From NCBI GenBank assembly GCA_964373255.1, contig CAYJTG010000005.1, positions 10,638-74,637 of the forward strand: 64,000 bases of DNA, in the 5' to 3' direction. Position numbers and translations under genes: made by a program. Position 1 is the stretch's first letter, and every line of letters starts with the position of its first letter. The stretch is from an uncultured archaeon (GTDB lineage: Archaea > Aenigmatarchaeota > Aenigmatarchaeia > GW2011-AR5). Below the pieces are notes generated by a model. That model worked only from the letters and a program-made list of their open reading frames with translations. It had not been told where the DNA came from and did not search any database. Positions 686 to 63,540 of the stretch are shown piece by piece.

Positions 686-1243
686 CTATTTCGCCTTTAG
701 CGTCTTCAGTGTCGCCTCTAATTTTTTCACAGCCTTCTTCACGGCGTCCAGCGACTTGGCGCCTGCGCAGACCGCACGGCCGGAAGAGAAAAGCAAGAAG
801 GCGACCTTGGGCTCGTATATCCTGTAGACAAGGCCGGGAAACTGCTCTGGTTCATACTCACTGTTCTCCAGTTGAAATGCTAATTGGTCTAAATTGAGCT
901 CGTGGCCAAGATTTATGGCGACGACAATATTTTCTATCTTTACCTTGAGGTTGTTTTCGTTGAATCTTATTCCTATCTTCTTTATCTTTCCGACCGTTAT
1001 CTTCAACGCCAGTTTTGCAGCCGTCGTGCTGCGCGCGCCAACGCATATTATTTTTCCTGACCTGAAGATGAGTGTAGCAACCTTTGGCTCGTCCAATCGA
1101 AAAACAAGGCCTGGAAACTGCTCGGGCTCGTATTCGCTCGCTTCTAGAACTGTCAGCAGTTTGTCGAGCGATATTATTTTTTTGATGTCCGTAGAAGCAA
1201 CAACGTTCTCAACCTTTATTTTTTCGACCATCTTATCCACCAA
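686..1243 (-). CDS. tbp: TATA-box binding protein
   Basis: Two direct ~90-aa TBP repeats, each with ...SEYEPEQFPGLV(F/Y)R..PKVA.L.F.SG(K/R)..C.GA.S. 185 aa; TTG start in the ORF track. Confidence 0.9.
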   Translation of the reverse strand: MVDKMVEKIKVENVVASTDIKKIISLDKLLTVLEASEYEPEQFPGLVFRLDEPKVATLIFRSGKIICVGARSTTAAKLALKITVGKIKKIGIRFNENNLKVKIENIVVAINLGHELNLDQLAFQLENSEYEPEQFPGLVYRIYEPKVAFLLFSSGRAVCAGAKSLDAVKKAVKKLEATLKTLKAK

Positions 1244-2196: not shown

Positions 2197-4176
2197 ATGG
2201 ACGCGGTTGACAGGCTGGATGAATTCATACGCGAATATTATCATTCTGATTTAATCAAGGCACTAAAGGAAGACCGCGCCTTGACCGTAGACTTTTCTAT
2301 GATTGACAGGTTTGACCCAATTATAGCCGACCAGTTGCTGGAGGACCCGGATGCTATAATAAAAATATTTGACGAGGCAGCAGAGAGGATCTCTAATGAA
2401 AAGATCCATGTAAGAATAAGGAACCTGCCCCAGAGCAGGATGATAAGAATAAGGAACCTGCGGTCCAAGCATATCAGAAAATTTATGACGGTCGACGCGA
2501 TTATAAAAGCTGCTTCCGAGGTAAAGCCGCAGATATACGAGGTCGTGTTTGAGTGCCCGGAATGCAGTGCAAAGATTTCTGTTCCTCAGGAGACAAACAT
2601 CGTCCAGAAACCGCTCCAGTGCGACTGCGGCCGCCGCGGCGATTTCAAAACTCTCAAAAAAAGCATGTACGACATAAGGTGGCTTACCGCCGTTGAGCCG
2701 TTCGAAATAACAACAGGCGAGCAGCCGGGACAGATATCTATTTTGCTTAAGGAAGACCTCACGACACCAAGGATGCAGAAGAAAACCGATCCTGGCAGCA
2801 AGCTGAAGTTCACAGGCATTCTGAAGGAATTGCCGAAGCGTATAAAGGGAAAATTGTCCACAAAAATGGATATGTATATTGAGGCCAACCACGTGGAGTC
2901 GAGCGACATCGAATTCGAGGAACTGGATATAACGCCTGAGGATGAAAAACTCATAAAGGATCTTGCGAATGACCCAGCTGTCTACGATAGGCTGATCGCA
3001 TCGATAGCGCCCGGAATCTTCGGGTTTGAGGAAATAAAGGAGTCCATTATGCTCCAGCTCTTTGGCGGCGTTGCTCACGTCTTGCCAGACGGCTCTCGCA
3101 TCAGGGGCAACATACATATATTGCTGACAGGGGATCCTGGAATTGGAAAAAGCGTTCTGCTGAAATTGGTTTCTTCTCTCGTTCCTCGGGGCCGCTATGT
3201 TTCCGGGTCAGGTGTCTCGGGTGCAGGACTTACGGCCACAGTGGTAAAAAATGAGGCCATAGGCGGATGGGTCCTTGAAGCAGGAGCCCTGATACTGTGC
3301 AACAAAGGGCTTATTGCCATAGACGAGTTCGACAAGATGAGCAGGGACGACCAGATTGCAATGCACGAAGCGACAAGCATCGAGACGGTCAGCATTGCAA
3401 AAGCCTCTATCGTGGCCACGCTCCCGGCACAGACAGCCGTGCTCGCGGGCGCGAACCCGAAGTTCGGACGTTTTGATCCGTACGTCCCTATCGCACAGCA
3501 GATAGACATACCAGAAACTCTGTTGTCAAGGTTTGATCTGAAATTCGCCCTTCGTGACATTCCCGACAGGACAAAAGACGAAAAGCTGGCGTCGCATATA
3601 GTCGCGTCAAGGGCATCGCCTGAATTTGCCGAGCCGCCCATTGGCACGAATCTGCTGAGAAAATATATCGCCTACACAAAAAAGATAACGGACATCGAAC
3701 TCACGCCAGACGTCGCAAACATGATAAAAAATTTCTACGTTGACATGAGAAACCAGTATTCTGGCGAGGAGGTACAGACGGTGAGCATAACGCTGAGACA
3801 GTACGAAGCATTAATAAGATTAGCAGAGGCGTCGGCAAAGATAAGGCTTGACACAAAGGTACGCATCACAGACGCGGAGCGCGCTATAAAGCTTATGAAA
3901 GCAACGCTCTACCAGCTTGGCTACGACGTCGAATCAGGCCGCATAGACATAGACAGGGTCGAGGGCGGAGTGCCGGCAACAAAGAGGAGGAAGATATTCA
4001 TCGTGCTCGACATACTTGAAAGGCTGCAGAAGGAGGTCGGAAAAGAGGTCTCGATAGAAGACCTGAAGGCAGAGGCTGAGAGCGAGGGCATCGAAGACGC
4101 TCAGGATATTATTGACAACCTGACACGGGAAGGGACAATCTTCCAGCCGCGATCCGGCTTTGTGAGAAAGGTTTAA
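2197..4176 (+). CDS. mcm: MCM replicative helicase
   Basis: Zn finger CPECSAKI...CDCG, Walker A GDPGIGKS, Walker B IDEFDKM, arginine finger SRFDL, and C-terminal winged helix. 659 aa. Confidence 0.9.
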   Translation: MDAVDRLDEFIREYYHSDLIKALKEDRALTVDFSMIDRFDPIIADQLLEDPDAIIKIFDEAAERISNEKIHVRIRNLPQSRMIRIRNLRSKHIRKFMTVDAIIKAASEVKPQIYEVVFECPECSAKISVPQETNIVQKPLQCDCGRRGDFKTLKKSMYDIRWLTAVEPFEITTGEQPGQISILLKEDLTTPRMQKKTDPGSKLKFTGILKELPKRIKGKLSTKMDMYIEANHVESSDIEFEELDITPEDEKLIKDLANDPAVYDRLIASIAPGIFGFEEIKESIMLQLFGGVAHVLPDGSRIRGNIHILLTGDPGIGKSVLLKLVSSLVPRGRYVSGSGVSGAGLTATVVKNEAIGGWVLEAGALILCNKGLIAIDEFDKMSRDDQIAMHEATSIETVSIAKASIVATLPAQTAVLAGANPKFGRFDPYVPIAQQIDIPETLLSRFDLKFALRDIPDRTKDEKLASHIVASRASPEFAEPPIGTNLLRKYIAYTKKITDIELTPDVANMIKNFYVDMRNQYSGEEVQTVSITLRQYEALIRLAEASAKIRLDTKVRITDAERAIKLMKATLYQLGYDVESGRIDIDRVEGGVPATKRRKIFIVLDILERLQKEVGKEVSIEDLKAEAESEGIEDAQDIIDNLTREGTIFQPRSGFVRKV

Positions 4177-9505: not shown

Positions 9506-10209
9506 TCTTCCAGTATAGATTTCTCATACTTCTTTGTAAGCATCTTCTTTATCTTCTTCGCAAGTATATCCCCTATTCCATCAACGCGCTGCAAATCTTC
9601 TTCTGTAGCTGTGAAAATCTTCTCCGGTGTTCCAAAATGCTTCAGCAGTTTCTTCGACTTCTCATTGCTTATTTTGGGCAGGCCAGCTATTAAATATTCC
9701 TGTAGTTCGTTCATCGACCTTGTTTTTTTCTTGCCCCTTATCGCTACAGATTTTTTGTTGTCCAGCTGCTCTCTCTTAGCAATAGAAAAAAGCATCTCTG
9801 CCGTTTCCAGCTGATTTCTTGTCCATAAAATAGGTATTGAAAAATCTACAGCTATTGCCGCCAGCGCACCCCTTATCGCGTTAGGATGTATTTTTCTGTC
9901 TTCGTAGAAAAGCGTGTCACCCTCAATTATTATTAATGGATTCTTGAAATTGCTCTTAAGTTCTTTTATTTGATTGAACAGCCTGCCGTCTATCAGGCTC
10001 TGAAGAAAATCATTCGTTGTCTTCCTCTCCGCGCATACACGCTTGCTGAGAAGGTAGTCGCCGACGGGCAGATTTATTTCCTCAAGCGCACATTTTTTGC
10101 GAAGTATATGAGGAATCCTGCTGCTTGCTTCTCTTATGTCGGTGTAGATTTTCACTTCACTTTCTTGCATGATAAAATTTATGGAAGAATGAATTAAAAG
10201 GCAGTGCAA
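9502..10209 (-). CDS. XPF/Hef-type ERCC4 nuclease with C-terminal (HhH)2 domain, as a stand-alone gene
   Basis: ERCC4 motif LSKRVCAERKTTNDFLQSL..GRLFNQ (ERK...D) and C-terminal LIAGLPKISNEKSKKLLKHFGTPEKIFTATEEDLQRVDGIGDILAKKI, a helix-hairpin-helix pair. Confidence 0.8.
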   Translation of the reverse strand: MHCLLIHSSINFIMQESEVKIYTDIREASSRIPHILRKKCALEEINLPVGDYLLSKRVCAERKTTNDFLQSLIDGRLFNQIKELKSNFKNPLIIIEGDTLFYEDRKIHPNAIRGALAAIAVDFSIPILWTRNQLETAEMLFSIAKREQLDNKKSVAIRGKKKTRSMNELQEYLIAGLPKISNEKSKKLLKHFGTPEKIFTATEEDLQRVDGIGDILAKKIKKMLTKKYEKSILED

Positions 10210-18884: not shown

Positions 18885-18998
18885 ACACCGTGTAATTTAT
18901 TGTCCTAGAATTTGCCTGATAAATATATTGCGATTAAGTATTTAAGCGTTCTTCGTGGCGAGTTTTACAATCTTGTTCGCATAAAATCTTTTGTTCCG

Positions 18999-19129
18999 GC
19001 TCTGTTGAAAACCTATGAAAAAGCATCGACGTAGACCCTTACGTCTTATCGACGTAAGGGTCAGCTAGAGCTATCATCGAGAGATGATAGCTCTCACGTC
19101 GATGCTTTTATTGAGCATTTCAACAGAGC
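18999..19129. mobile_element. Family-A MITE-like palindromic element, copy A1 (131 bp)
   Basis: Terminal inverted repeat gctctgttgaaa / tttcaacagagc, enclosing inverted repeat aaagcatcgacgt / acgtcgatgcttt, two perfect 12-bp hairpins (gacccttacgtc-ttatc-gacgtaagggtc; agagctatcatc-gaga-gatgatagctct). Confidence 0.75.
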
Positions 19130-19271
19130 CTTTGTTCCATAATTCTAGCACAAATTTCACATATACTGTTTCCACATTTGCCATTCATAGCTTTAGCCGC
19201 AATAAAAAGATTATTCGGATGTATATCTGCATTTCCAGCTATAGAAATAATTAAATTTTTTTTATTCATAA

Positions 19272-19898: not shown

Positions 19899-21347
19899 TC
19901 AGTACGCCTTCGCGACATAAACGACGTGCTTTGCGGGCTTGTCGCAGTAGACACAATCAGAAAACGTTTTCTCGCCCTTTTTGTACAGCGTCCCCCTTAT
20001 CTCCCATCCTTGCGTGTCCGCTTTCAGATTCTTCTCACACTTGTCAGAGCCGCACCAGTTCGTTCGTATGATACCGCCTTTCCTTGTTGCATTCTTGAGT
20101 TCGTTGAGCGTTTTTGTATCTCTTATGTTTTCATTGAGGAATTTTCTTGATTTTTCATGCATCTCATTCTGAATTGTATTAAGTATGTCAATAACAGAAT
20201 TTAATTTTTCTATTTTTATCTTTATTTTTGTGCCGTCGTTTCGCTTCACGCATGTCAATTCTTTATTTTCAACGTCCTTCGGGCCGATCTCTATCCTCAG
20301 CGGCACGCCTTTCAGCTCCCACTCGTTGAACTTGAAGCCCGCTGAATAATTGCGGTCGTCTAAGTGAGTCCTGACGCCTGATTTTTCTAATTTATCAAGC
20401 GTATTCTTTGCGTTGTCGATCACCAATTTTTCCTTTCCCTTAAACAATATAGGAATGATCACGACCTGTACAGGCGCAAGCCTTGGTGGAAGGACCGCTC
20501 CTTTATCATCGCCGTGGTGCATTATCAGTATCCCTAACTGCCTTGTCGATATGCCCCACGACGTCTGCCACACGTGCTGCTTCTTGTCGTCTTTGTCAAG
20601 AAACTGAATGTTAAATGACTTTGCAAAATTCTGGCCTAACATGTGCGTTCCAGGACCCTGTGCGATTTTTCCGTCCTGCAAGAGCGTGTCGTAGACAACA
20701 GAAAAATCTGCGCCTGCAAACGTGTCGGACTGCGGCCTTACTAAGATCAGAGGCTCGATGGCAAGGTCCTTGTATATTTCTCCATACATCTGCACGGCGT
20801 GGTCGATCATCTTCTCGGCGTCCTCTTTTGTGGCGTGGGCCGTGTGACCCTCTTGCCATAGGAATTCACGGCTTCGCAGAAACGGCTTCGTGCCTTTTGT
20901 ATCAAAGCGGACGACGTTGCACCACTGGTTGATCTTGAATGGCAGGTCCTTGTAAGAGCGAATCCACAGCGAGAACATATAATACATTATCGTTTCTGAT
21001 GTAGGGCGAATCGCATATCTTTCTTCTAATTTCTCGCCGCCCGCCTCTGTCACAATCATCGTTTCCGCCTTAAAGCCTGCAAAGTGCTCCTCTTCTTTTT
21101 TCAGTAGCCTTTCTGGTATGAGCAGAGGAAAATAGCAGTTTTTAACGTCATGTTCTTTTATCAGAGCATCAAAATTTTTTTGTATTATTTCCCAGACGGC
21201 GTAGCCCCACGGAAGAATGACGTCAAAGCCCTTCACCGGACTTCTTTGATCTATGAAATTCCCTTTGCGCACTACTTCCAGATACCAGCGGCTGAAGTCA
21301 TCACCGCGCTTTGCGGTTAATCCAAGTTCTTCTGACATGATTATCAC
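19899..21347 (-). CDS. proS: Prolyl-tRNA synthetase (archaeal/eukaryotic-type class II)
   Basis: 482 aa; class II core with C-terminal Zn-binding extension (CVYCDKPAKHVVYVAKAY); N-terminal FSRWYLEVVRKGNFIDQRSPVKGFDVILPWGYAVWE typical of archaeal ProRS. Confidence 0.9.
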   Translation of the reverse strand: MIIMSEELGLTAKRGDDFSRWYLEVVRKGNFIDQRSPVKGFDVILPWGYAVWEIIQKNFDALIKEHDVKNCYFPLLIPERLLKKEEEHFAGFKAETMIVTEAGGEKLEERYAIRPTSETIMYYMFSLWIRSYKDLPFKINQWCNVVRFDTKGTKPFLRSREFLWQEGHTAHATKEDAEKMIDHAVQMYGEIYKDLAIEPLILVRPQSDTFAGADFSVVYDTLLQDGKIAQGPGTHMLGQNFAKSFNIQFLDKDDKKQHVWQTSWGISTRQLGILIMHHGDDKGAVLPPRLAPVQVVIIPILFKGKEKLVIDNAKNTLDKLEKSGVRTHLDDRNYSAGFKFNEWELKGVPLRIEIGPKDVENKELTCVKRNDGTKIKIKIEKLNSVIDILNTIQNEMHEKSRKFLNENIRDTKTLNELKNATRKGGIIRTNWCGSDKCEKNLKADTQGWEIRGTLYKKGEKTFSDCVYCDKPAKHVVYVAKAY

Positions 21348-21752: not shown

Positions 21753-22061
21753 TGGGCTTGGCAGGATTTGAACCTGCGTCACAAGCTCCCAATGAGCATC
21801 AAATTATAGCTCTACAAGGAAAGAAACAAGATACAAGAAAGAACGAAGTTCTTTCTGTACAGCAAGAGCAAAGCTCTTGCTTGTATTACTTCCTTGTGAG
21901 CTATATGTGAAACCGGAAAAACATGTCCGGATTCTTTTCTGGTTTCACTATAAGCTCGGATCATAGTCGTATGAGATGCGAAGCATCTCTATGCTCTAAC
22001 CAAATTGTCCCACCTTCCGCTTTGATGCAGCTTTCTGGAAAGGTGCCTAGACTACAAGCCC
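21753..22061 (-). tRNA. tRNA-like gene with about 235 nt of structured intervening sequence (candidate multi-intron tRNA; anticodon not resolved, loop ATTGGGA suggests Pro/UGG)
   Basis: Minus strand: 5' GGGCTTG-TA-GTCTAGG... and 3' ...GTGAC-GCAGG-TTCAAAT-CCTGC-CAAGCCC-A. 7-bp acceptor helix, canonical T arm, discriminator A. Interior has several perfect hairpins. Confidence 0.5.
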
Positions 22062-22262: not shown

Positions 22263-22514
22263 TTAGAGCCGCATCGATTTATTTATCAGGTTATATTTTT
22301 GACTCTTTGATAGTTTCTTGAACGCCACTTCTGCCCTAAGCGCTTCGCCCTTCGTTTCGTGCGCCCAGTATGCAATAATTTCGACCGGAAGCCTGCTTCT
22401 AGTATATTTTGAGGCTTTTCCTTCATTGTGTAGCTTCAGTCTTCTCTTCAAGTTATTGGTATAACCTGTGTAAAATGATCCGTCCTTGCACTTCAAGACG
22501 TATACGTAGAACAT
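22263..22514 (-). CDS. GIY-YIG nuclease family protein (UPF0213-like)
   Basis: MFYVYVLKCKDGSFYTGYTNNLKRRLKLHNEG matches the GIY..YIG..N...R...H motif. Track ORF (to 22553) extends into MITE copy A4, so the internal Met at 22514 is taken as start. Confidence 0.65.
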   Translation of the reverse strand: MFYVYVLKCKDGSFYTGYTNNLKRRLKLHNEGKASKYTRSRLPVEIIAYWAHETKGEALRAEVAFKKLSKSQKYNLINKSMRL

Positions 22515-22524
22515 AAAATTACCT

Positions 22525-22655
22525 GCTCTGTAGAAATGCTCGATAAAGAGCATCGACGTAGACCTATACGTCTCTTGACGTATAGGTCAGCTAGAGATAT
22601 CATCGATAGATGATATCTCTCACGTCGATGCTCTTGCATAGGTTTTCTACAGAGC
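22525..22655. mobile_element. Family-A MITE-like element, diverged copy A4
   Basis: Same architecture as A1. Both internal hairpins carry compensatory substitutions that keep perfect pairing. Confidence 0.65.
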
Positions 22656-22707
22656 AAAATTACCTAATTATATACTATATATTCGGAAAGGATTAAGTCT
22701 GATTTCT

Positions 22708-22815
22708 CAGGAAGGGATTAAGTCTAGACACACAGAAAGCAAAGCTTTCTGGTGCACCAAAGAACCTTTGGTTCTTTGCGTGTTATAAGGGAAACCCAGG
22801 TTTCCCTTAATGTAG
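22708..22815 (-). repeat. Family-H hairpin-string element, copy H3 (reverse orientation)
   Basis: Reverse complement of the 51654-51761 element: cattaagggaaacccaggtttccctta / aaagaaccaaaggttcttt / cagaaagctttgctttctg / tctagacttaatcccttcctg. Confidence 0.6.
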
Positions 22816-22817
22816 AG

Positions 22818-23029
22818 TGGGCTCGCCCGGAATTTCACCGAAGCAGCATAATACTGCGATAGCCACCTAAGGATGGTAATGCCTTAGGAAGGATATCCTT
22901 CCTCGGCTTTGAACCGGGGTCTCATGCTTTTCAGTTTCTTTACTTGATTTTTCTGACTTTCTTGATTAAACTTCTTTTCAAAAGAAGTTTACCCTAAGCA
23001 CGGATCCTAACCAAACTAGACTACGAGCC
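22818..23029 (-). tRNA. Second tRNA-like gene with ~140 nt structured interior; 3' T-arm non-canonical (uncertain)
   Basis: Minus strand 5' GGGCTCG-TA-GTCTAGTTTGGTTAGGATCC... and 3' ...CGAGCCC-A (7-bp acceptor complement 212 nt apart). 5' 15 nt nearly identical to the 21753-22061 gene. Internal CCCGG-TTCAAAG-CCGAG T-arm-like segment. Interior has perfect hairpins (aaacttctttt-gaaa-agaagttt; gaaggatatccttc). Confidence 0.3.
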
Positions 23030-23069
23030 CATAAATTCTACATAGTTTATTAGATTTTTAAGGGGGTGA

Positions 23070-23212
23070 GACACTGTCAACTTAAGGGGTACATAATGGA
23101 ATCGAAGATTCCACTTGTACAGGTGAAGCTTTGCTTCACCATGTATTAGCTATCGCTAATACCCCAGAAAAGGCTGTTGCCTATAGGCAACAGCCGTTAA
23201 GTTGACAGTGCC
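23070..23212. mobile_element. Family-Z TIR element, copy Z1 (internal module replaced)
   Basis: TIRs cactgtcaacttaag / cttaagttgacagtg; internal ggctgttgcc-tatag-gcaacagcc hairpin. Central segment carries the ggaatcgaagattcc and caggtgaagctttgcttcacc modules seen at 15880-16000. Confidence 0.6.
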
Positions 23213-24123: not shown

Positions 24124-24217
24124 GTATAATCAGTATTGGGCATTCGTCTTGCACAGAAGCAATTGCGTACAAATAGCTACGAGCCCAGCAATTTCTATAA
24201 TGATTTATTATGCATTT

Positions 24218-26079: not shown

Positions 26080-26121
26080 ATAATTAAATAAATTAAATAT
26101 TTGATTTTGGGAGGTAGTTGC

Positions 26122-29100
26122 ATGGCAAAAATAACAAAAGTTCGAAAAAGAGACGGAAGAATTGTAAATTTTGGCAAAGACAAGATAACAAACGCTATAT
26201 TCAAGGCCGTCCAGGCAGTAGGCGGGTCTGACAAAACTATAGCAGAAAGCCTTGCAAATCAGGTCATGGAAATTCTGGAAAAGAATATGCCACCGGGCGC
26301 TATTCCAAACATAGAGGATATACAGGATATTGTCGAGAGGGTTCTGATAGAATCCGGCCATGCAAAGACAGCAAAGGCCTACATACTTTACAGGAATGAG
26401 CACGCCAGAGTAAGGGAAGAGCAGAAAAGAATATTAGGCGGCAAAACAACAAAGCTCCCCTTCAGCATGAATGCCCTGCAGGTTCTTGCAAAGCGCTACC
26501 TTGTAAGAAACAGGGACGGTAATGTTATTGAATCGCCTGATGATATGTTCGAGAGGGTTGCTGATTCTTTGGCAAGCGTGGAGTACGAGTATGGAAAAAC
26601 AAACGAGGAAGTCGAAAAATTTTCCCAGCAGTTCAATGAAATCATGGCAAGTTTTGAGTTCATACCAGCTGGGCGCACAATGACAAACGCGGGCTCGCCG
26701 ACCCCTATAGTGCCTAATTGCATAGTCCTTCATATTGGCGACAACATGGATAACATATTTCAGACACTTAAAGAAGCCTCGCTTCTTCAGCAGGCAGGCT
26801 CTGGGTTGGGATTTCCGTTCCACCTGCTAAGGCCGGCCGGCACCGTTGCAAAGCGCTCCCGTGGGGTAGCCTCCGGTCCGGTCTCTTTCCTGCGCGTTTA
26901 CAATAATGCATTCGGCGTGATAAAACAGCAAAACAGGCACGGCGCGAACATGGGCGTTATGCGCGTCGACCATCCGGATATACTTGAATTCATACACGCA
27001 AAGGACGTCGAGGGCGAGATAAGGAACTTCAACATCTCCGTTGCAATTACAGATGAATTCATGCAGAAGGCACGCGACAACGATTCAACGCCTTGGATAT
27101 GCGAGTGGAACGGCGAAAAGATGAAGCCAAGGCGCGTTTACAGGGATTCAAACGGCATTGTTCTCGACATCAAGGAGGAGACAATGACGGCAAAAGAAAT
27201 CTTCATGGAAATTGTGTCGTCGGCATGGCAGACCGGCGAACCTGGAATAATCTTCATCGACAAAATAAATGATACAAATCCGTTGCCCGGTCTTGGTCGA
27301 ATAGAGGCGTGTAATCCTTGTGTGACCGGCGATACATTAGTAAGCACGGAACACGGAATGATGAAAATATCTGATTTGGCAGAGAAACATGGAAAAGGTG
27401 GCGTATCTGTAATTTGTGACAATAGGATGCCTATAACAATATATGAATCTGATGGAACCAAAGTCCTGATATACAAAGGCACAAAAGGCACACAAATCAA
27501 TAACGTGAGTGCTGCATGGAAATCTGGCTTCAAAGATGTATTGAAAATTGAAACAGAATCGGGGTACGAGCTTGAAGCCACAGCAGATCATAAGATAATG
27601 ACAACAAAAGGATGGATAGATGTCGAAAACCTTACAAAAGAACACGAAATTCTTATTCAATCAGGAGAAGGAAGATTCTCTGTAAACAACCAAATTCCAT
27701 TTGAAGTGCAGAATGAATTTATTGGAGAAAATGGCAGAACTTATAAATATAATTTTCCTCGTCAATGGAACAGGGAATTGGGGCAACTTCTTGGCTGGAT
27801 CGTAGGTGATGGCTGGATAAGAGACAAGGAAAAGGAGTGCGATAAAGAAATAATGACACATATAAAGTCGATAGGAAACATGATTTATGGCTCTGAAAAA
27901 CGAGAAATTGAAAGAATAAGAAATACACACCATCTCAATTATGGTTCACGACGCTTTGTAGAATACCTTATGAAGCTTGGGCTCAAGACAACAGGCGCAG
28001 AAAATAAAGAAGTACCAAAGAGCATTTTCACAGCACCAAAAGACGCTGTATCAGGCTTCCTTCAAGGTTTGTTTTCATCAGATGGCACAGTAATGCTAGA
28101 CGAAAAACATGGCAACTATTATATAAGATTGACAACGAAATCGATAAAACTTGCAAAACAGGTTCAGACACTTCTTCTGAACTTCGGAATTAAGTCAAGA
28201 ATATACGACAGGAGCAGGCCGCCAAAAAAGAACCTATTTACGTATGAAACAAAATCAGGAGAAAAAAGAACTTATGCATCTGACGGAATTCTGTTTGAAG
28301 TGCATGTACATGGCGATACAATAATAAAATTTAATGAACAAATAGGATTTCTATGCAGTAAAAATAAAGAGAAAATAGAAAAGATACTGAAAAAGAATCT
28401 AAGAGACGATAAATTTACAGACAAAGTAAAATATGTCGAGTACATTGGCAAGAAAGATGTCTACGATCTCACAGAACCAGCGACGCACTCTTTCATAGCA
28501 AATGGTATTGTGGTATCAAATTGTGGTGAGCAATTTCTCCACGACGGCGATGTCTGCAATCTTGGTTCGATAAATCTGGAAAAATTTGTAAAAGATGGCA
28601 AAATAGATTTTGATCGATTAAGGCATGTCACACGTTTAGCTGTGCGTATGCTTGACAACGTTGTCGATATCACAGCAGCGCCTGCCGACCGTGTCAATCA
28701 CATGTTCCGCGCAAACCGCAGGGTCGGTTTGGGCATAATGGGCTTTGCGGATATGCTCTATCAACTGAAGATAGGTTATAATGCAGAAGAGGGCGCAAAG
28801 ACAGCAGAAAAGGTCATGAACTGCATTCAAGAATCTGCCCACCAAATGTCGCAAGAGCTTGCTGAGGAGAAAGGCGTGTTTCCAAACTGGGAGAAGAGCG
28901 TATTTGCAAAGAAAGGTATAAAGATGCGAAACGCCGCGCTCACAAACATCGCCCCGACAGGAACTATATCCATGGTCTTCGACGTTTCCGGGGGCGTAGA
29001 ACCTTATTTTGCCTTGGCTTACCACTACCAGGGAATTCTGGGGGGCGCAACCCAGCTCTACTACGTCAACAAGCACCTGAGAAAGACACTGGAAGAGTAT

Positions 29101-29589
29101 GGTTTATACAACGATGTAATAATGAAGCGCATATTTGAGGAAGGAACGCTGCAGCGTATAGAAGAAATCCCTGATGATTTGAAGCGTGTGTTTGTCACGG
29201 CCATGGATATTTCATCCGACGACCACATACGGGTGCAGGCGGCTTTCCAGAAATACGTTGACAACAGCATATCAAAGACGTGCAACTTCCCTGAGGACGC
29301 TACAAAAGAGGACGTCTTTCAGGGATATCTGCTCGCCTGGCAGCTCGGCTGCAAGAGCTGCACCGTGTACAGAAACAACTCACGCAGGCTGCAAGTGCTG
29401 AATCTTAACAAGCAGAAACAGGAGGAAGTTCAGGAAGAGGAGTACGAGCCGCAGCAGCAGAAGATAGCGGTCGCAGCCACAAACGGTTCTACACATTACA
29501 CGACGTGTCCAGAGTGTGACACCGTGCTGGAGCAAAAAGAAGGGTGTTCTTCTTGCCCTCAGTGCGGCTGGGGATTGTGCAGCGTGTAA
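26122..29589 (+). CDS. nrdJ: Class II (B12-dependent) ribonucleotide reductase NrdJ, with N-terminal ATP cone, one intein, and C-terminal Zn ribbon
   Basis: ATP cone [21 protein letters not shown]. Catalytic motif NP|CGEQ split by the intein. C-terminal CPECD...CPQCG. GGAGGT 7 nt upstream of ATG 26122. Extein ~760 aa. Confidence 0.85.
27319..28521 (+). mobile_element. Intein (401 aa) with LAGLIDADG homing-endonuclease domain, inserted before the catalytic Cys of the RNR NPCGE motif
   Basis: N-extein ...EACNP | [11 protein letters not shown] (Cys1, block A) ... [11 protein letters not shown] and [12 protein letters not shown] (two LAGLIDADG-type motifs) ... IANGIVVSN | CGEQF (terminal Asn, +1 Cys). 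Confidence 0.8.
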
Positions 29590-34971: not shown

Positions 34972-34980
34972 TTACATAGT

Positions 34981-35167
34981 GCTCTGTAGAAAACCTATGC
35001 AAGAGCATCGACGTGAGAGCTATTATCTTCTAAGATAACAAAGTTATCTTGAAGATTCAGGTTGACTTTGTCAACCATGAATCTGTCGATAATAGCTCTA
35101 GCTGACCTATACGTCAAGAGACGTATAGGTCTACGTCGATGCTCTTTATCGTGCATTTCTACAGAGC
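34981..35167. mobile_element. Family-A MITE-like element, copy A5 with inverted core plus a 70-bp insert
   Basis: Same TIRs and cgtcgatgc inverted repeats as A1. Internal hairpin pair is in reverse-complement order relative to A1/A2/A3. Also carries an extra insert ttctaagataacaaagttatcttgaa... Confidence 0.65.
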
Positions 35168-35220
35168 TTTACATAGGAAATCTCATCAACTTTTTATAAA
35201 AGGCACTACAATAGATTTCT

Positions 35221-37767: not shown

Positions 37768-38088
37768 TTATTGTTTCTGCCTTAATTGCAATTCTTTGAT
37801 AATTTTGCCTTGAATTTCTGGATCACGCAATTCGTCAAGTTCAATTTCGTAGACTGGTTGATACCTCCTGCCATCTGTACCAATAATCTTGAATTTTGGA
37901 CCCCAAATTCTCGTATGCCAATATTCTAAAATTGATTTTGGTGTATCTGAACTATCTAAATAAACCTCGTAAGGTTCAAATCCTAGTTTTCTAACTACCG
38001 TATCGATTCTATATAATGGTGTGTTAGCTTGTGTTTTGTATTTTGTCATATTGGGTTGTATTTCGTATTCCATAATTTTTCCCCCCAT
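37768..38088 (-). CDS. Hypothetical protein (AT-rich islet)
   Basis: 106 aa; ~33% GC coding sequence; no motif. Confidence 0.3.
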   Translation of the reverse strand: MGGKIMEYEIQPNMTKYKTQANTPLYRIDTVVRKLGFEPYEVYLDSSDTPKSILEYWHTRIWGPKFKIIGTDGRRYQPVYEIELDELRDPEIQGKIIKELQLRQKQ

Positions 38089-39912: not shown

Positions 39913-40097
39913 GGAGATACAGGCATAGTCATGCAAGGAAATAATCAGTATATAATTATACCCTTGCTGACTATATGTGAAACCAGTCATAGCATGTCCA
40001 GATTATTTACTGGTTTCACTATAAACCGCATTACAAACATCTTTATACAACATAGTTCTAACTTCTAACAGAAAACGATAAAAAATTATGAAAATGA

Positions 40098-46650: not shown

Positions 46651-46846
46651 GCACTGTCAACTTATTATGAAGCAAGTAAATAATCTGGATATTATAGCAA
46701 ACAAGAAATATAATACCTGATTCTTTTCTTGTTTAGCTATAAGGGTGGTTAGCCATTGCTAACCACCCAGAAAAGGCTGTTGCCAAAGCAGATAGACGCA
46801 CTTTAGTGCGTCAGTTTGTTTCAACAGCCGCTAAGTTGACAGTGCC
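46651..46846. mobile_element. Family-Z TIR element, copy Z2, with two nested insertions
   Basis: TIRs gcactgtcaactta / taagttgacagtgcc. A 79-bp XY-type element (ttatgaagcaagtaaataatctg...gtttagctata) inserted after caactta. A second hairpin module (agatagacgcactttagtgcgtcagtttgtttc) lies inside the ggctgttgcc...aacagcc loop. Confidence 0.6.
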
Positions 46847-48889: not shown

Positions 48890-48910
48890 GATTATAAACC
48901 TCTTACTTTG

Positions 48911-49041
48911 GCTCTGTTGAAAACCTATGAAAAAGCATCGACGTAGACCCTTACGTCTTATCGACGTAAGGGTCAGCTAGAGCTATTGTCAAAAGACAAT
49001 AGCTCTCACGTCGATGCTTTTATTGAGCATTTCAACAGAGC
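48911..49041. mobile_element. Family-A MITE-like element, copy A2, filling the S24e-S27ae spacer
   Basis: Identical TIRs and outer stems to A1. Second hairpin carries compensatory change (ctattgtc-aaaa-gacaatag versus ctatcatc-gaga-gatgatag). Confidence 0.75.
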
Positions 49042-51642: not shown

Positions 51643-51653
51643 TCTAAATCACT

Positions 51654-51761
51654 CTACATTAAGGGAAACCCAGGTTTCCCTTATAACACGCAAAGAACCA
51701 AAGGTTCTTTGGTGCACCAGAAAGCTTTGCTTTCTGTGTGTCTAGACTTAATCCCTTCCTG
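51654..51761 (+). repeat. Family-H hairpin-string element, copy H2, immediately upstream of rpoE
   Basis: cattaagggaaacccaggtttccctta / aaagaaccaaaggttcttt / cagaaagctttgctttctg / tctagacttaatcccttcctg. Confidence 0.6.
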
Positions 51762-52016
51762 AAATTTTTGCTTAAGCTTTTTTAAAAAAGCTTACTAGAC
51801 TTGCCTTCCCTCACTTGCCTGTTTGTTCTCATGAGTAGTTAGAAATTTTAAAATCATGAAGAACATATCTTTCTTGAGAGTAAGAGGTTTTAAAGCTTTC
51901 TTTCATCGGTATTGAAAAATTAACATTCCACCATTTTTCTACAGTATCTCCGAAAGTTGGATTACTGCCTCTTTGCAGTAATCCTCTACCGAGGTATATG
52001 CCACAAGGCGTATACC

Positions 52017-56263: not shown

Positions 56264-56351
56264 GCACTGTCAACTTAAGGGTGGTTAGCTGTTGCTAACC
56301 ACCCAGAAAAGGCTGTTGCCGATAGGCAACAGCCGTTAAGTTGACAGTGCC
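56264..56351. mobile_element. Family-Z TIR element, compact canonical copy Z3 (88 bp)
   Basis: ggcactgtcaacttaag / gggtggttagc-tgtt-gctaaccaccc / agaaaa / ggctgttgcc-gatag-gcaacagcc / gttaagttgacagtgcc. Two perfect hairpins inside perfect 16-bp TIRs. Confidence 0.7.
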
Positions 56352-56422
56352 ATCGGAGGCAAACTTGTTTTTACTTGTCTTTTCTTGAGAATTTCTTACT
56401 TGATTTTCTTTCTTAAAGAAAA

Positions 56423-63337: not shown

Positions 63338-63377
63338 AATTTTATATGGCGGATTGTGTTTATATTGGTTTTTATTA

Positions 63378-63509
63378 GCTCTGTTGAAAACCTATGAAAA
63401 AGCATCGACGTAGACCCTTACGTCTTATCTACGTAAGGGTCAGCTAGAGCTATCATCAACAGACGATAGCTCTCACGTCGATGCTTTTTGTTGAGCATTT
63501 CTACAGAGC
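63378..63509. mobile_element. Family-A MITE-like element, copy A3
   Basis: Near-identical to A1 over the first 75 bp; right hairpin variant (ctatcatc-aaca-gacgatag); right TIR tttctacagagc. Confidence 0.75.
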
Positions 63510-63540
63510 CTTTTTATTCTTTCTTCTGAATACGGATTCT

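Follow-up and report, generated by a model that had tools for sequence, protein, structure and literature searches.

The 64,000-nt stretch of contig CAYJTG010000005.1 analysed here (the window) carries on its minus strand, at 22818-23030, what we take, with a probability of about 0.88, to be a functional proline tRNA gene with the anticodon AGG, interrupted by two introns and belonging to a DPANN archaeon, probably one of the Aenigmatarchaeota. This gene (locus 2) has a paralogue nearby, a tRNA-Pro(UGG) gene with three introns (locus 1). When the two inserts of locus 2 (22929-22991 and 22832-22907) are excised, a 74-nt product remains, which ARAGORN identifies as tRNA-Pro(AGG) with a perfect cloverleaf and which is identical at 74/74 positions to the spliced tRNA-Pro(AGG) of L033, a related Aenigmatarchaeota contig, and at 73/74 to that of L029a, one of two such genes on contig L029. 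Features of the window and of related loci (designated by L numbers) are listed in Table 1.

Anatomy of the interrupted gene

Locus 2 runs from 23030 to 22818 (213 nt, including the discriminator A73) and reads GGGCTCG-UA-GUCU-AGUUUGGUUA-GGAU-C-CGUGC-UUAGGG / 63 nt / A-GCAUG-AGAC-CCCGG-UUCAAA / 76 nt / U-CCGGG-CGAGCCC-A. The acceptor stem (GGGCTCG/CGAGCCC, followed by A) is a perfect helix of 7 bp and CCA is not encoded. The splice registers are unique, neighbouring registers never yielding the same product. The identity elements recognised by archaeal prolyl-tRNA synthetase (ProRS)—anticodon NGG, G37, A73 and G1-G3:C70-C72—are all present; the anticodon loop is UUAGGGA, and ARAGORN assigns the tRNA to proline. 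Across nine aligned tRNA-Pro sequences G1-G3, C70, C72 and A73 never vary, and C occupies position 71 in eight of the nine; pairing in the cloverleaf is 99.5% complete, with both sides changing in 13 of 21 pairs, a result reached by none of 500 shuffles. A/T-rich TATA-like boxes, such as the putative box of locus 2, also lie ~25-35 nt upstream of the tRNA in the orthologues.

Table 1. Features of locus 2 and its surroundings; positions are those of the window unless a related locus is named
Feature	Position	Strand	Remarks
Putative archaeal TATA box TTAAAAAT	23054-23061	-	-31 to -24 from tRNA nt 1; read from the sequence
Locus 2 exon 1, 39 nt	22992-23030	-	acceptor 5′ strand, D arm, anticodon stem 5′ strand, loop nt 32-37, anticodon AGG (22994-22996); identical to L033 exons
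Locus 2 intron 1, 63 nt	22929-22991	-	Sprinzl 37/38, relaxed motif
Locus 2 exon 2, 21 nt	22908-22928	-	nt 38, anticodon stem 3′ strand, 4-nt variable loop, T stem 5′ strand, T-loop nt 54-59
Locus 2 intron 2, 76 nt	22832-22907	-	59/60 in the T loop, strict hBHBh′
Locus 2 exon 3, 14 nt	22818-22831	-	U60, T stem 3′ strand, acceptor 3′ strand, A73; identical in L029a and L033
3′ trailer block, three hairpins, 111 nt	22707-22817	-	directly abuts A73; 98% identical to 51652-51762
Miniature inverted-repeat transposable element, 131 nt	22525-22655	-	12-bp terminal inverted repeats GCTCTGTAGAAA/TTTCTACAGAGC
Composite hairpin element	23072-23210	-	just upstream of the promoter; 14-bp outer stem (CACTGTCAACTTAA/TTAAGTTGACAGTG) around four small hairpins
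GIY-YIG nuclease-family gene	22263-22514	-	between the two tRNA-Pro genes; PF01541, E 7e-20
Locus 1, tRNA-Pro(UGG), three introns	21753-22061	-	spliced product called tRNA-Pro(UGG) by ARAGORN
Locus 1 intron 15/16, 42 nt	22005-22046	-	central helix 4/4
Locus 1 intron 22/23, 33 nt	21963-21995	-	central helix 4/4
Locus 1 intron 33/34, 160 nt	21792-21951	-	central helix 4/4
Archaeal-type ProRS	19899-21335		69-75% identical to ProRS of DPANN metagenome-assembled genomes, mostly labelled Aenigmatarchaeota
Dual-hairpin repeat copies	21800-21957, 39923-40027, ~46700-46750	-	
Dual-hairpin repeat copies, relatives	L005 12007-12135; L003 3670-3770, 17919-18027, 13764-13914; L035 ~700-800		
A34 tRNA-Pro genes, relatives	L003 5844-5957; L005 9818-9891; L021 397-470; L022; L024; L029 (both genes); L033		

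Intron 2 has the strongest bulge-helix-bulge (BHB) motif at the locus and is of the strict hBHBh′ form: the outer helix is the 5-bp T stem, the central helix UUCA/UGAA pairs at 4/4 positions, the bulges are AA|G and AU|U and the inner helix is CCGAGG/CUUCGG (6 bp), with three small hairpins in the interior. This 5/4/6-bp motif lies in the exact register that restores the T loop UUCAAAU; BHB motifs in which both flanking helices reach at least 4 bp occur on average 0.15 times per shuffle. Intron 1 takes a relaxed, bulge-helix-loop-like form, with a central helix UUAG/CUGA (4/4), a canonical 3′ bulge AA|A adjoining the 5-bp anticodon stem as outer helix, and a 5′ site GG|U flanked by the central helix and a 10-bp hairpin (AAACUUCUUU/AAGAAGUUU), 33 nt of the opposing strand remaining unpaired. 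No other register restores UUAGGGA, the anticodon loop seen in the uninterrupted orthologues. Relaxed forms of this kind are substrates in archaea with broad-specificity endonucleases (PMC4090602).

When 15 tRNA-Pro introns of the clade were placed in the register of the mature tRNA, the central helix paired at 4/4 positions in 12, at 3/4 in two and at 2/4 in one, and the alternative registers listed all scored 1-3 (the 40/41 register of L029a was read by hand, by analogy with L022). By eye, no box C/D motifs were seen in the introns. An imperfect tandem repeat (AATCAAGAAAG.. / AATCAAGTAAAG..) in the single-stranded part of intron 1, at 22929-22965 (-), points to possible growth of the intron by slippage.

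Standard searches pass over the gene. On the whole window ARAGORN (default and -i0,300) returned 0 tRNA genes, since two introns, or one in the T loop, are beyond its scope, and Rfam at gathering threshold returned no tRNA. The RF00005 model did not match unspliced locus 2 even at E up to 10 (gathering threshold 29 bits), as expected from two large inserts, and elsewhere Rfam at E up to 10 yielded only a partial tRNA match to locus 1 (16.7 bits), judged spurious, and chance matches to plastid UTRs. A T-arm motif scan of the window for further hidden tRNAs found only the two loci convincing; a candidate at 37974 was rejected as coding. Loci 1 and 2 are both proline tRNAs of the region, and their loss in automatic annotation affects estimates of completeness and codon capacity for DPANN genomes.

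An earlier, sequence-only reading had described a tRNA-derived locus of 212 nt at 22818-23029, with structured inserts and a 7-bp acceptor closure. Its tRNA origin, acceptor helix and inserts, now resolved as two BHB introns, all stand, as does the 3′ end; the 5′ start moves to 23030. That reading had also linked the locus to locus 1 through a match at 13 of the first 15 nt, and the match is real because the two are paralogous tRNA-Pro genes, the count rising to 14/15 (GGGCTCGTAGTCTAG against GGGCTTGTAGTCTAG at 22061-22047); taken alone, such a 15-mer match is not significant (at least two matches in 14 of 100 shuffles). Both of the T-arm-like segments it had noted are explained by the position of intron 2 inside the T loop. 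The segment TTCGG-TGAAATT-CCGGG, rightly judged non-canonical as a T loop, is the end of intron 2 (CTTCGG, TGAA and the bulge AT|T) joined to the 3′ half of the T stem, and CCCGG-TTCAAAG-CCGAG, proposed as a T arm, supplies the 5′ half of the T stem and T-loop nt 54-59, the remainder being the first intron bases. The suggestion of an intron 3′ of the T arm, or else of a non-standard tRNA, has to be given up: there are two introns, one inside the T loop at 59/60 and the other at 37/38, and the tRNA is standard once spliced.

Orthologous genes and rival explanations

Relatives carry a tRNA-Pro gene beside the same GIY-YIG gene, a synteny kept in L003, L006, L021, L022, L029 and L033, and the conserved grouping of GIY-YIG gene, second tRNA-Pro gene and ProRS supports a functional gene. 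Two other loci anchored on ProRS (L002 and L007) have other neighbours and no tRNA, and P0035 was rejected as bacterial. The AGG genes of L005 and L021 have no introns, score 53.6 and 56.7 bits on RF00005 and align with spliced locus 2. Elsewhere the AGG gene is interrupted in different ways: by 38 nt at 37/38 only in L003 (= L023), by 30 nt at 40/41 in L022 and L024, by introns at 15/16, 22/23 and 37/38 in L033 (with an uninterrupted T arm), and by introns at 17/17a, 40/41 and 59/60, with none at 37/38, in L029a, which has the same 3′ exon and trailer hairpin as the window. The segment corresponding to intron 2 is absent from L033, L003, L005, L021 and L022, and a 59/60 intron occupies the same site in L029a and in L029b. 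Uninterrupted orthologues score 53-58 bits on RF00005 and interrupted ones are all missed by Rfam.

Because the genes of these relatives are otherwise identical, with no introns or with introns placed differently, both inserts of locus 2 are lineage-specific insertions, and the 3′ end, which the relatives share, is the true one. The counter-case named by the sequence-only reading was a relative whose tRNA is ordinary and has another 3′ end; comparison came out the opposite way, the relatives sharing this 3′ end whether uninterrupted or differently interrupted. In the clade as a whole, introns are found at eight positions of tRNA-Pro (15/16, 17/17a, 20a/21, 22/23, 33/34, 37/38, 40/41 and 59/60). 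A MAFFT alignment of the window, L029 and L033 across the locus was poor, since the introns lie in different places, and only its trailer and transposable-element parts were used.

For transcription, cleavage, ligation and decoding we infer the following course. An archaeal promoter with its TATA-like box ~30 nt upstream would drive a precursor of at least 213 nt, in which EndA, the archaeal RNA-splicing endonuclease, would cut the 3-nt bulges of the two BHB motifs at ~37/38 and ~59/60. An RtcB-type ligase would join the three exons (39 + 21 + 14 nt), RNase P and RNase Z would trim the ends and CCA would be added; the 74-nt tRNA would then be charged by the ProRS encoded 1.5 kb away and would read CCU and perhaps other CCN codons.

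Several points weigh against a functional gene of this kind. No gene for a splicing endonuclease or a ligase was identified, although no search of the window was aimed at one. An A34 anticodon is unusual for Archaea (PMC8879553). The inner helix of intron 1 is not contiguous with its central helix, so a broad-specificity enzyme is needed. For the whole precursor, the fold of minimum free energy (-71.6 kcal/mol) differs from the BHB/cloverleaf conformer, which has -61.0 kcal/mol if enforced; this is a mild caveat. Among independent assemblies, none spans locus 2, and the same organism's Logan contigs stop within the flanking repeats.

That breakage of short-read assemblies could point to an artefact, created by a chimeric join of reads at the repeated hairpins, yet such an origin is scarcely credible: the introns are unique sequence, the exon/intron junctions form precise BHB motifs, the independent JGI contig L029 has the 59/60 intron at the same site of the orthologous gene, and the 3′ part of locus 1 is exactly reproduced in two independent assemblies (its last 108 nt recur in the Logan contigs L025 and L026). 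It is also very improbable that locus 2 is a tRNA-like remnant whose only role is to mark where an integrated element attaches or ends. The first ~20 nt of the tRNA do recur in decayed form (GGGCTCGTAG-CTA-TTTG-T) 1.15 kb upstream on the same strand (24169-24186), with unannotated open reading frames between, and tRNA 3′ ends are duplicated in L006 and L005; the partial copy, however, is that upstream fragment and not locus 2, which holds all parts of a complete tRNA and has no integrase found next to it.

Less far-fetched, though still unlikely, is a dead gene: an ordinary tRNA-Pro gene disrupted by mobile hairpins, similar to miniature inverted-repeat transposable elements (MITEs), that are not removed and so leave no functional tRNA. 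The locus lies in a hotspot of repeated hairpins with a bona fide MITE and its target duplication 160 nt away, the BHB of intron 1 is merely relaxed, and the intron 1 hairpin CTTCTTTTGAAAAGAAG belongs to a family found in trailers and other introns (z 6.4, 7.3). Against this, both inserts sit in exact BHB registers and have no terminal inverted repeats, target duplication or other copies, and the exons are undamaged, with the covarying stems intact and full identity to L033. Moreover, orthologues with introns at eight sites keep perfect exons, which is hard to explain without splicing.

Intron turnover and the A34 anticodon

A multi-intron tRNA gene with BHB motifs is of a known kind; what locus 2 adds is rapid intron turnover around an invariant mature tRNA, homology between introns and trailers, and a proline anticodon with A34 in an archaeon. 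Non-canonical sites (including 22/23 and 59/60), multi-intron genes and relaxed BHBs have been reported in Crenarchaeota and Nanoarchaeota (PMC4090602). As in the multi-intron genes of Thermoproteales and other Crenarchaeota (Sugahara et al. 2007, 2008; Marck and Grosjean 2003; PMC4090602), there are up to three introns per gene, strict motifs stand beside relaxed ones (hBH, HBh′) and ordinary tRNA finders miss the genes. Here, however, the host is DPANN (Aenigmatarchaeota-like) rather than TACK, the anticodon is AGG, and the intron complement varies among relatives with an identical mature tRNA. In DPANN archaea, tRNA gene disruption rises markedly and tRNA sets are incomplete and need manual curation (PMC5829648). 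The disrupted genes described from this superphylum together with broad-specificity EndA (ARMAN-2 epsilon2, L3-loop alpha4) come from genomes among which Aenigmatarchaeota were not analysed (PMC3239211, PMC5829648), and our literature search found no paper on Aenigmatarchaeota tRNA introns. The locus thus offers a natural time series for the birth, movement and loss of archaeal tRNA introns, a long-standing open question.

Several of the clade's introns resemble trailers or spacers of its own tRNA genes (z values compare Smith-Waterman scores with those of shuffles). The 17/17a intron of L029a is homologous to the spacer after the L003 AGG gene (z 12.2), as is the 15/16 intron of L033, up to the start region of the GIY-YIG gene (z 13.9). 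The first ~47 nt of the L029b 59/60 intron are collinear with the L022 and L005 trailers (z 11 and 10.6), and the D-loop intron of L005 is homologous to the L003 and L021 trailers, with GCGCTGGCGGAAA in common (z 8.2). These homologies (z 8-14) lie at L029 ~1231-1413 and ~1797-1988, L033 ~1168-1390, L003 5957-6000 and in the L022 and L005 trailers, and they include the TATA-like region upstream of the GIY-YIG gene. For the introns of locus 2 itself the signal is weaker: the intron 1 hairpin CTTCTTTTGAAAAGAAG belongs to a hairpin family also present in trailers and other introns (z 6.4-7.3), and the 3′ third of intron 2 is weakly homologous to the T-loop intron of L029b (z 4.7).

The homology suggests, without proving it, that introns are born by duplication and trailer capture, or that a hairpin element targets both trailers and tRNA bodies. 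Trailer capture would begin with duplication of a tRNA 3′ segment beyond the trailer; the proximal copy would be lost, turning the captured trailer into a BHB intron, and recombination between paralogues would spread the intron between the two tRNA-Pro genes. A visible intermediate of the first step may be L006 ~3100-3312 (-), where the last 16 nt (58-73) of a tRNA-Pro(GGG) gene are repeated 79 nt downstream with hairpin modules between; in L005 (~9880-9950) an 8-nt duplication repeats the 3′ end of the AGG gene, GAACCCAT, ~52 nt downstream. Both duplications could be intermediates in the birth of T-loop introns, or else integration footprints.

Intron transposition in Thermoproteales and, in Caldiarchaeum, the gain of introns when a mobile element integrates offer precedents (Fujishima et al. 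2010; Sugahara et al. 2012, PMC3293823). Common to those cases and ours are related introns at different positions and in different genes, nearby tRNA fragments and duplications, and fast turnover. They differ in the related sequences, which there are introns of other isoacceptors or an element bearing a recombinase and here are 3′ trailers and spacers of the tRNA genes themselves, the promoter region of the GIY-YIG gene among them; both introns of locus 2 show this homology only weakly (z 4.7-7.3).

Isolated tRNA-Pro 5′ fragments with no recognisable 3′ part nearby occur in the window, at 24169-24186 (-) (GGGCTCGTAG-CTA-TTTGT), and in two relatives (GGGCTCGTCGTTTAG in L033, ~1775-1790; GGGCCCGTAGTCCAGCTTGG in L028, ~1775-1795); these may be split genes, or else what integration or rearrangement has left behind.

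The paralogous pair may itself be exchanging sequence. Introns 15/16 and 22/23 of locus 1 have the same sites and similar ends as introns of the L033 AGG gene, which suggests recombination between the two paralogues. The gene downstream of GIY-YIG has the anticodon UGG in the window, L003 and L006, and AGG in L029 (~1797-1988), where it has exactly the same anticodon arm as the upstream gene; this points to possible gene conversion between paralogues.

An A34 proline anticodon is found in the window and in at least seven related contigs, and its conservation among several of them challenges the rule that G34 alone is used in the four-codon boxes of Archaea. Eukaryotic tRNA-Pro(AGG) is read as IGG after ADAT deamination. 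The archaeal gene has the same anticodon and likewise stands in place of a GGG isoacceptor, which L006 keeps at the syntenic position; unlike the eukaryotic case, no CDA-type deaminase motif (H/C-A-E...PCxxC) was found in the window or the related loci scanned, which are not whole genomes. Codon usage in the window favours CCU over CCC (128:55), whereas in the Thr, Ala, Gly and Val boxes C is at least as frequent as U. We regard as doubtful the larger proposal that the clade makes its new introns from its own 3′ trailer or spacer DNA, the T-loop intron of locus 2 being a diverged product, and has replaced tRNA-Pro(GGG) by an A34 tRNA, unprecedented for Archaea and possibly read as inosine.

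Hairpin repeats and neighbouring genes

Altogether 22 repeat intervals cover 1.9 kb of the window. The sequence-only reading had placed repeated hairpin elements around the locus, as is borne out by the 3′ flank, recurring at 51652-51762, and by parts of the 5′ flank, which recur at 56302-56353 and elsewhere. The inserts themselves are not of this kind: BLAST of introns 1 and 2 against the window and all fetched loci found only self-matches and chance matches of 11-14 nt, and since neither has another copy there, we rejected the idea that they are copies of, or belong to, the surrounding repeat families. The introns also show none of the marks of a MITE, having no flanking duplication, terminal inverted repeats or other copies.

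All three of these marks are present in the element at 22525-22655. It has four further copies in the window (18996-19133, 34980-35170, 48904-49041 and 63375-63513), terminal inverted repeats, and a flanking 10-bp direct repeat, AGGTAATTTT (22656-22665 and 22515-22524), which is the target duplication. It lies between the promoter region and the start codon of the GIY-YIG gene, a place where L029 has no MITE and a single GGGTAATTTT.

The trailer block of locus 2 matches the L029a trailer with z 17.9. Its hairpin UUAAGGGAAACC-UG-GGUUUCCCUUA (22786-22810) is conserved in L029, where it also follows the L029a gene, and in L028; two further hairpin modules are absent from L029 and are inserted relative to it. 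The copy of the block at 51652-51762 lies upstream of an unrelated minus-strand gene. Parts of the composite element at 23072-23210 are repeated elsewhere in the window and in L003.

Another family, a dual-hairpin repeat of the form TTATAG-GTGAAACC..GGTTTCAC-ATATAG-NNN-ACAAGGAAGTAATA..TTATTTCCTTGT-A-NNN-CTATAA, occurs in several Aenigmatarchaeota genomes, and the 160-nt intron of locus 1 consists mostly of one copy. This repeat has a fold z-score of -8.4, the base of its second hairpin covaries, and it matches no Rfam family. That the repeat is a mobile intron bounded by BHB motifs was rejected, as a strict BHB scan around free-standing copies found no consistent motif.

Short-read assemblies of the same organism (L001, L025, L026 and L027; Logan runs ERR3478686, ERR4904391 and ERR4904392) end inside hairpin repeats. 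It follows that these repeats exist in multiple copies throughout the genome and break up assemblies, which may explain why such tRNA genes are seldom observed.

The neighbouring genes are archaeal, encoding aCPSF1, a proteasome beta subunit, an FeS-assembly (DUF59) protein, the GIY-YIG protein, NrdR and a class II ribonucleotide reductase, and homologues of the GIY-YIG protein, like those of ProRS, are labelled Aenigmatarchaeota. Searches of Pfam, PHROGs and NCBIfam with the upstream 289-aa, 146-aa and 140-aa open reading frames gave no match. At 26101-29589 (+), preceded by the NrdR gene, lies a ribonucleotide reductase open reading frame of 1162 aa which, judged from its translation alone, seems to contain an intein: conserved reductase segments are separated by an additional block that starts with C and ends ...VVSNC.

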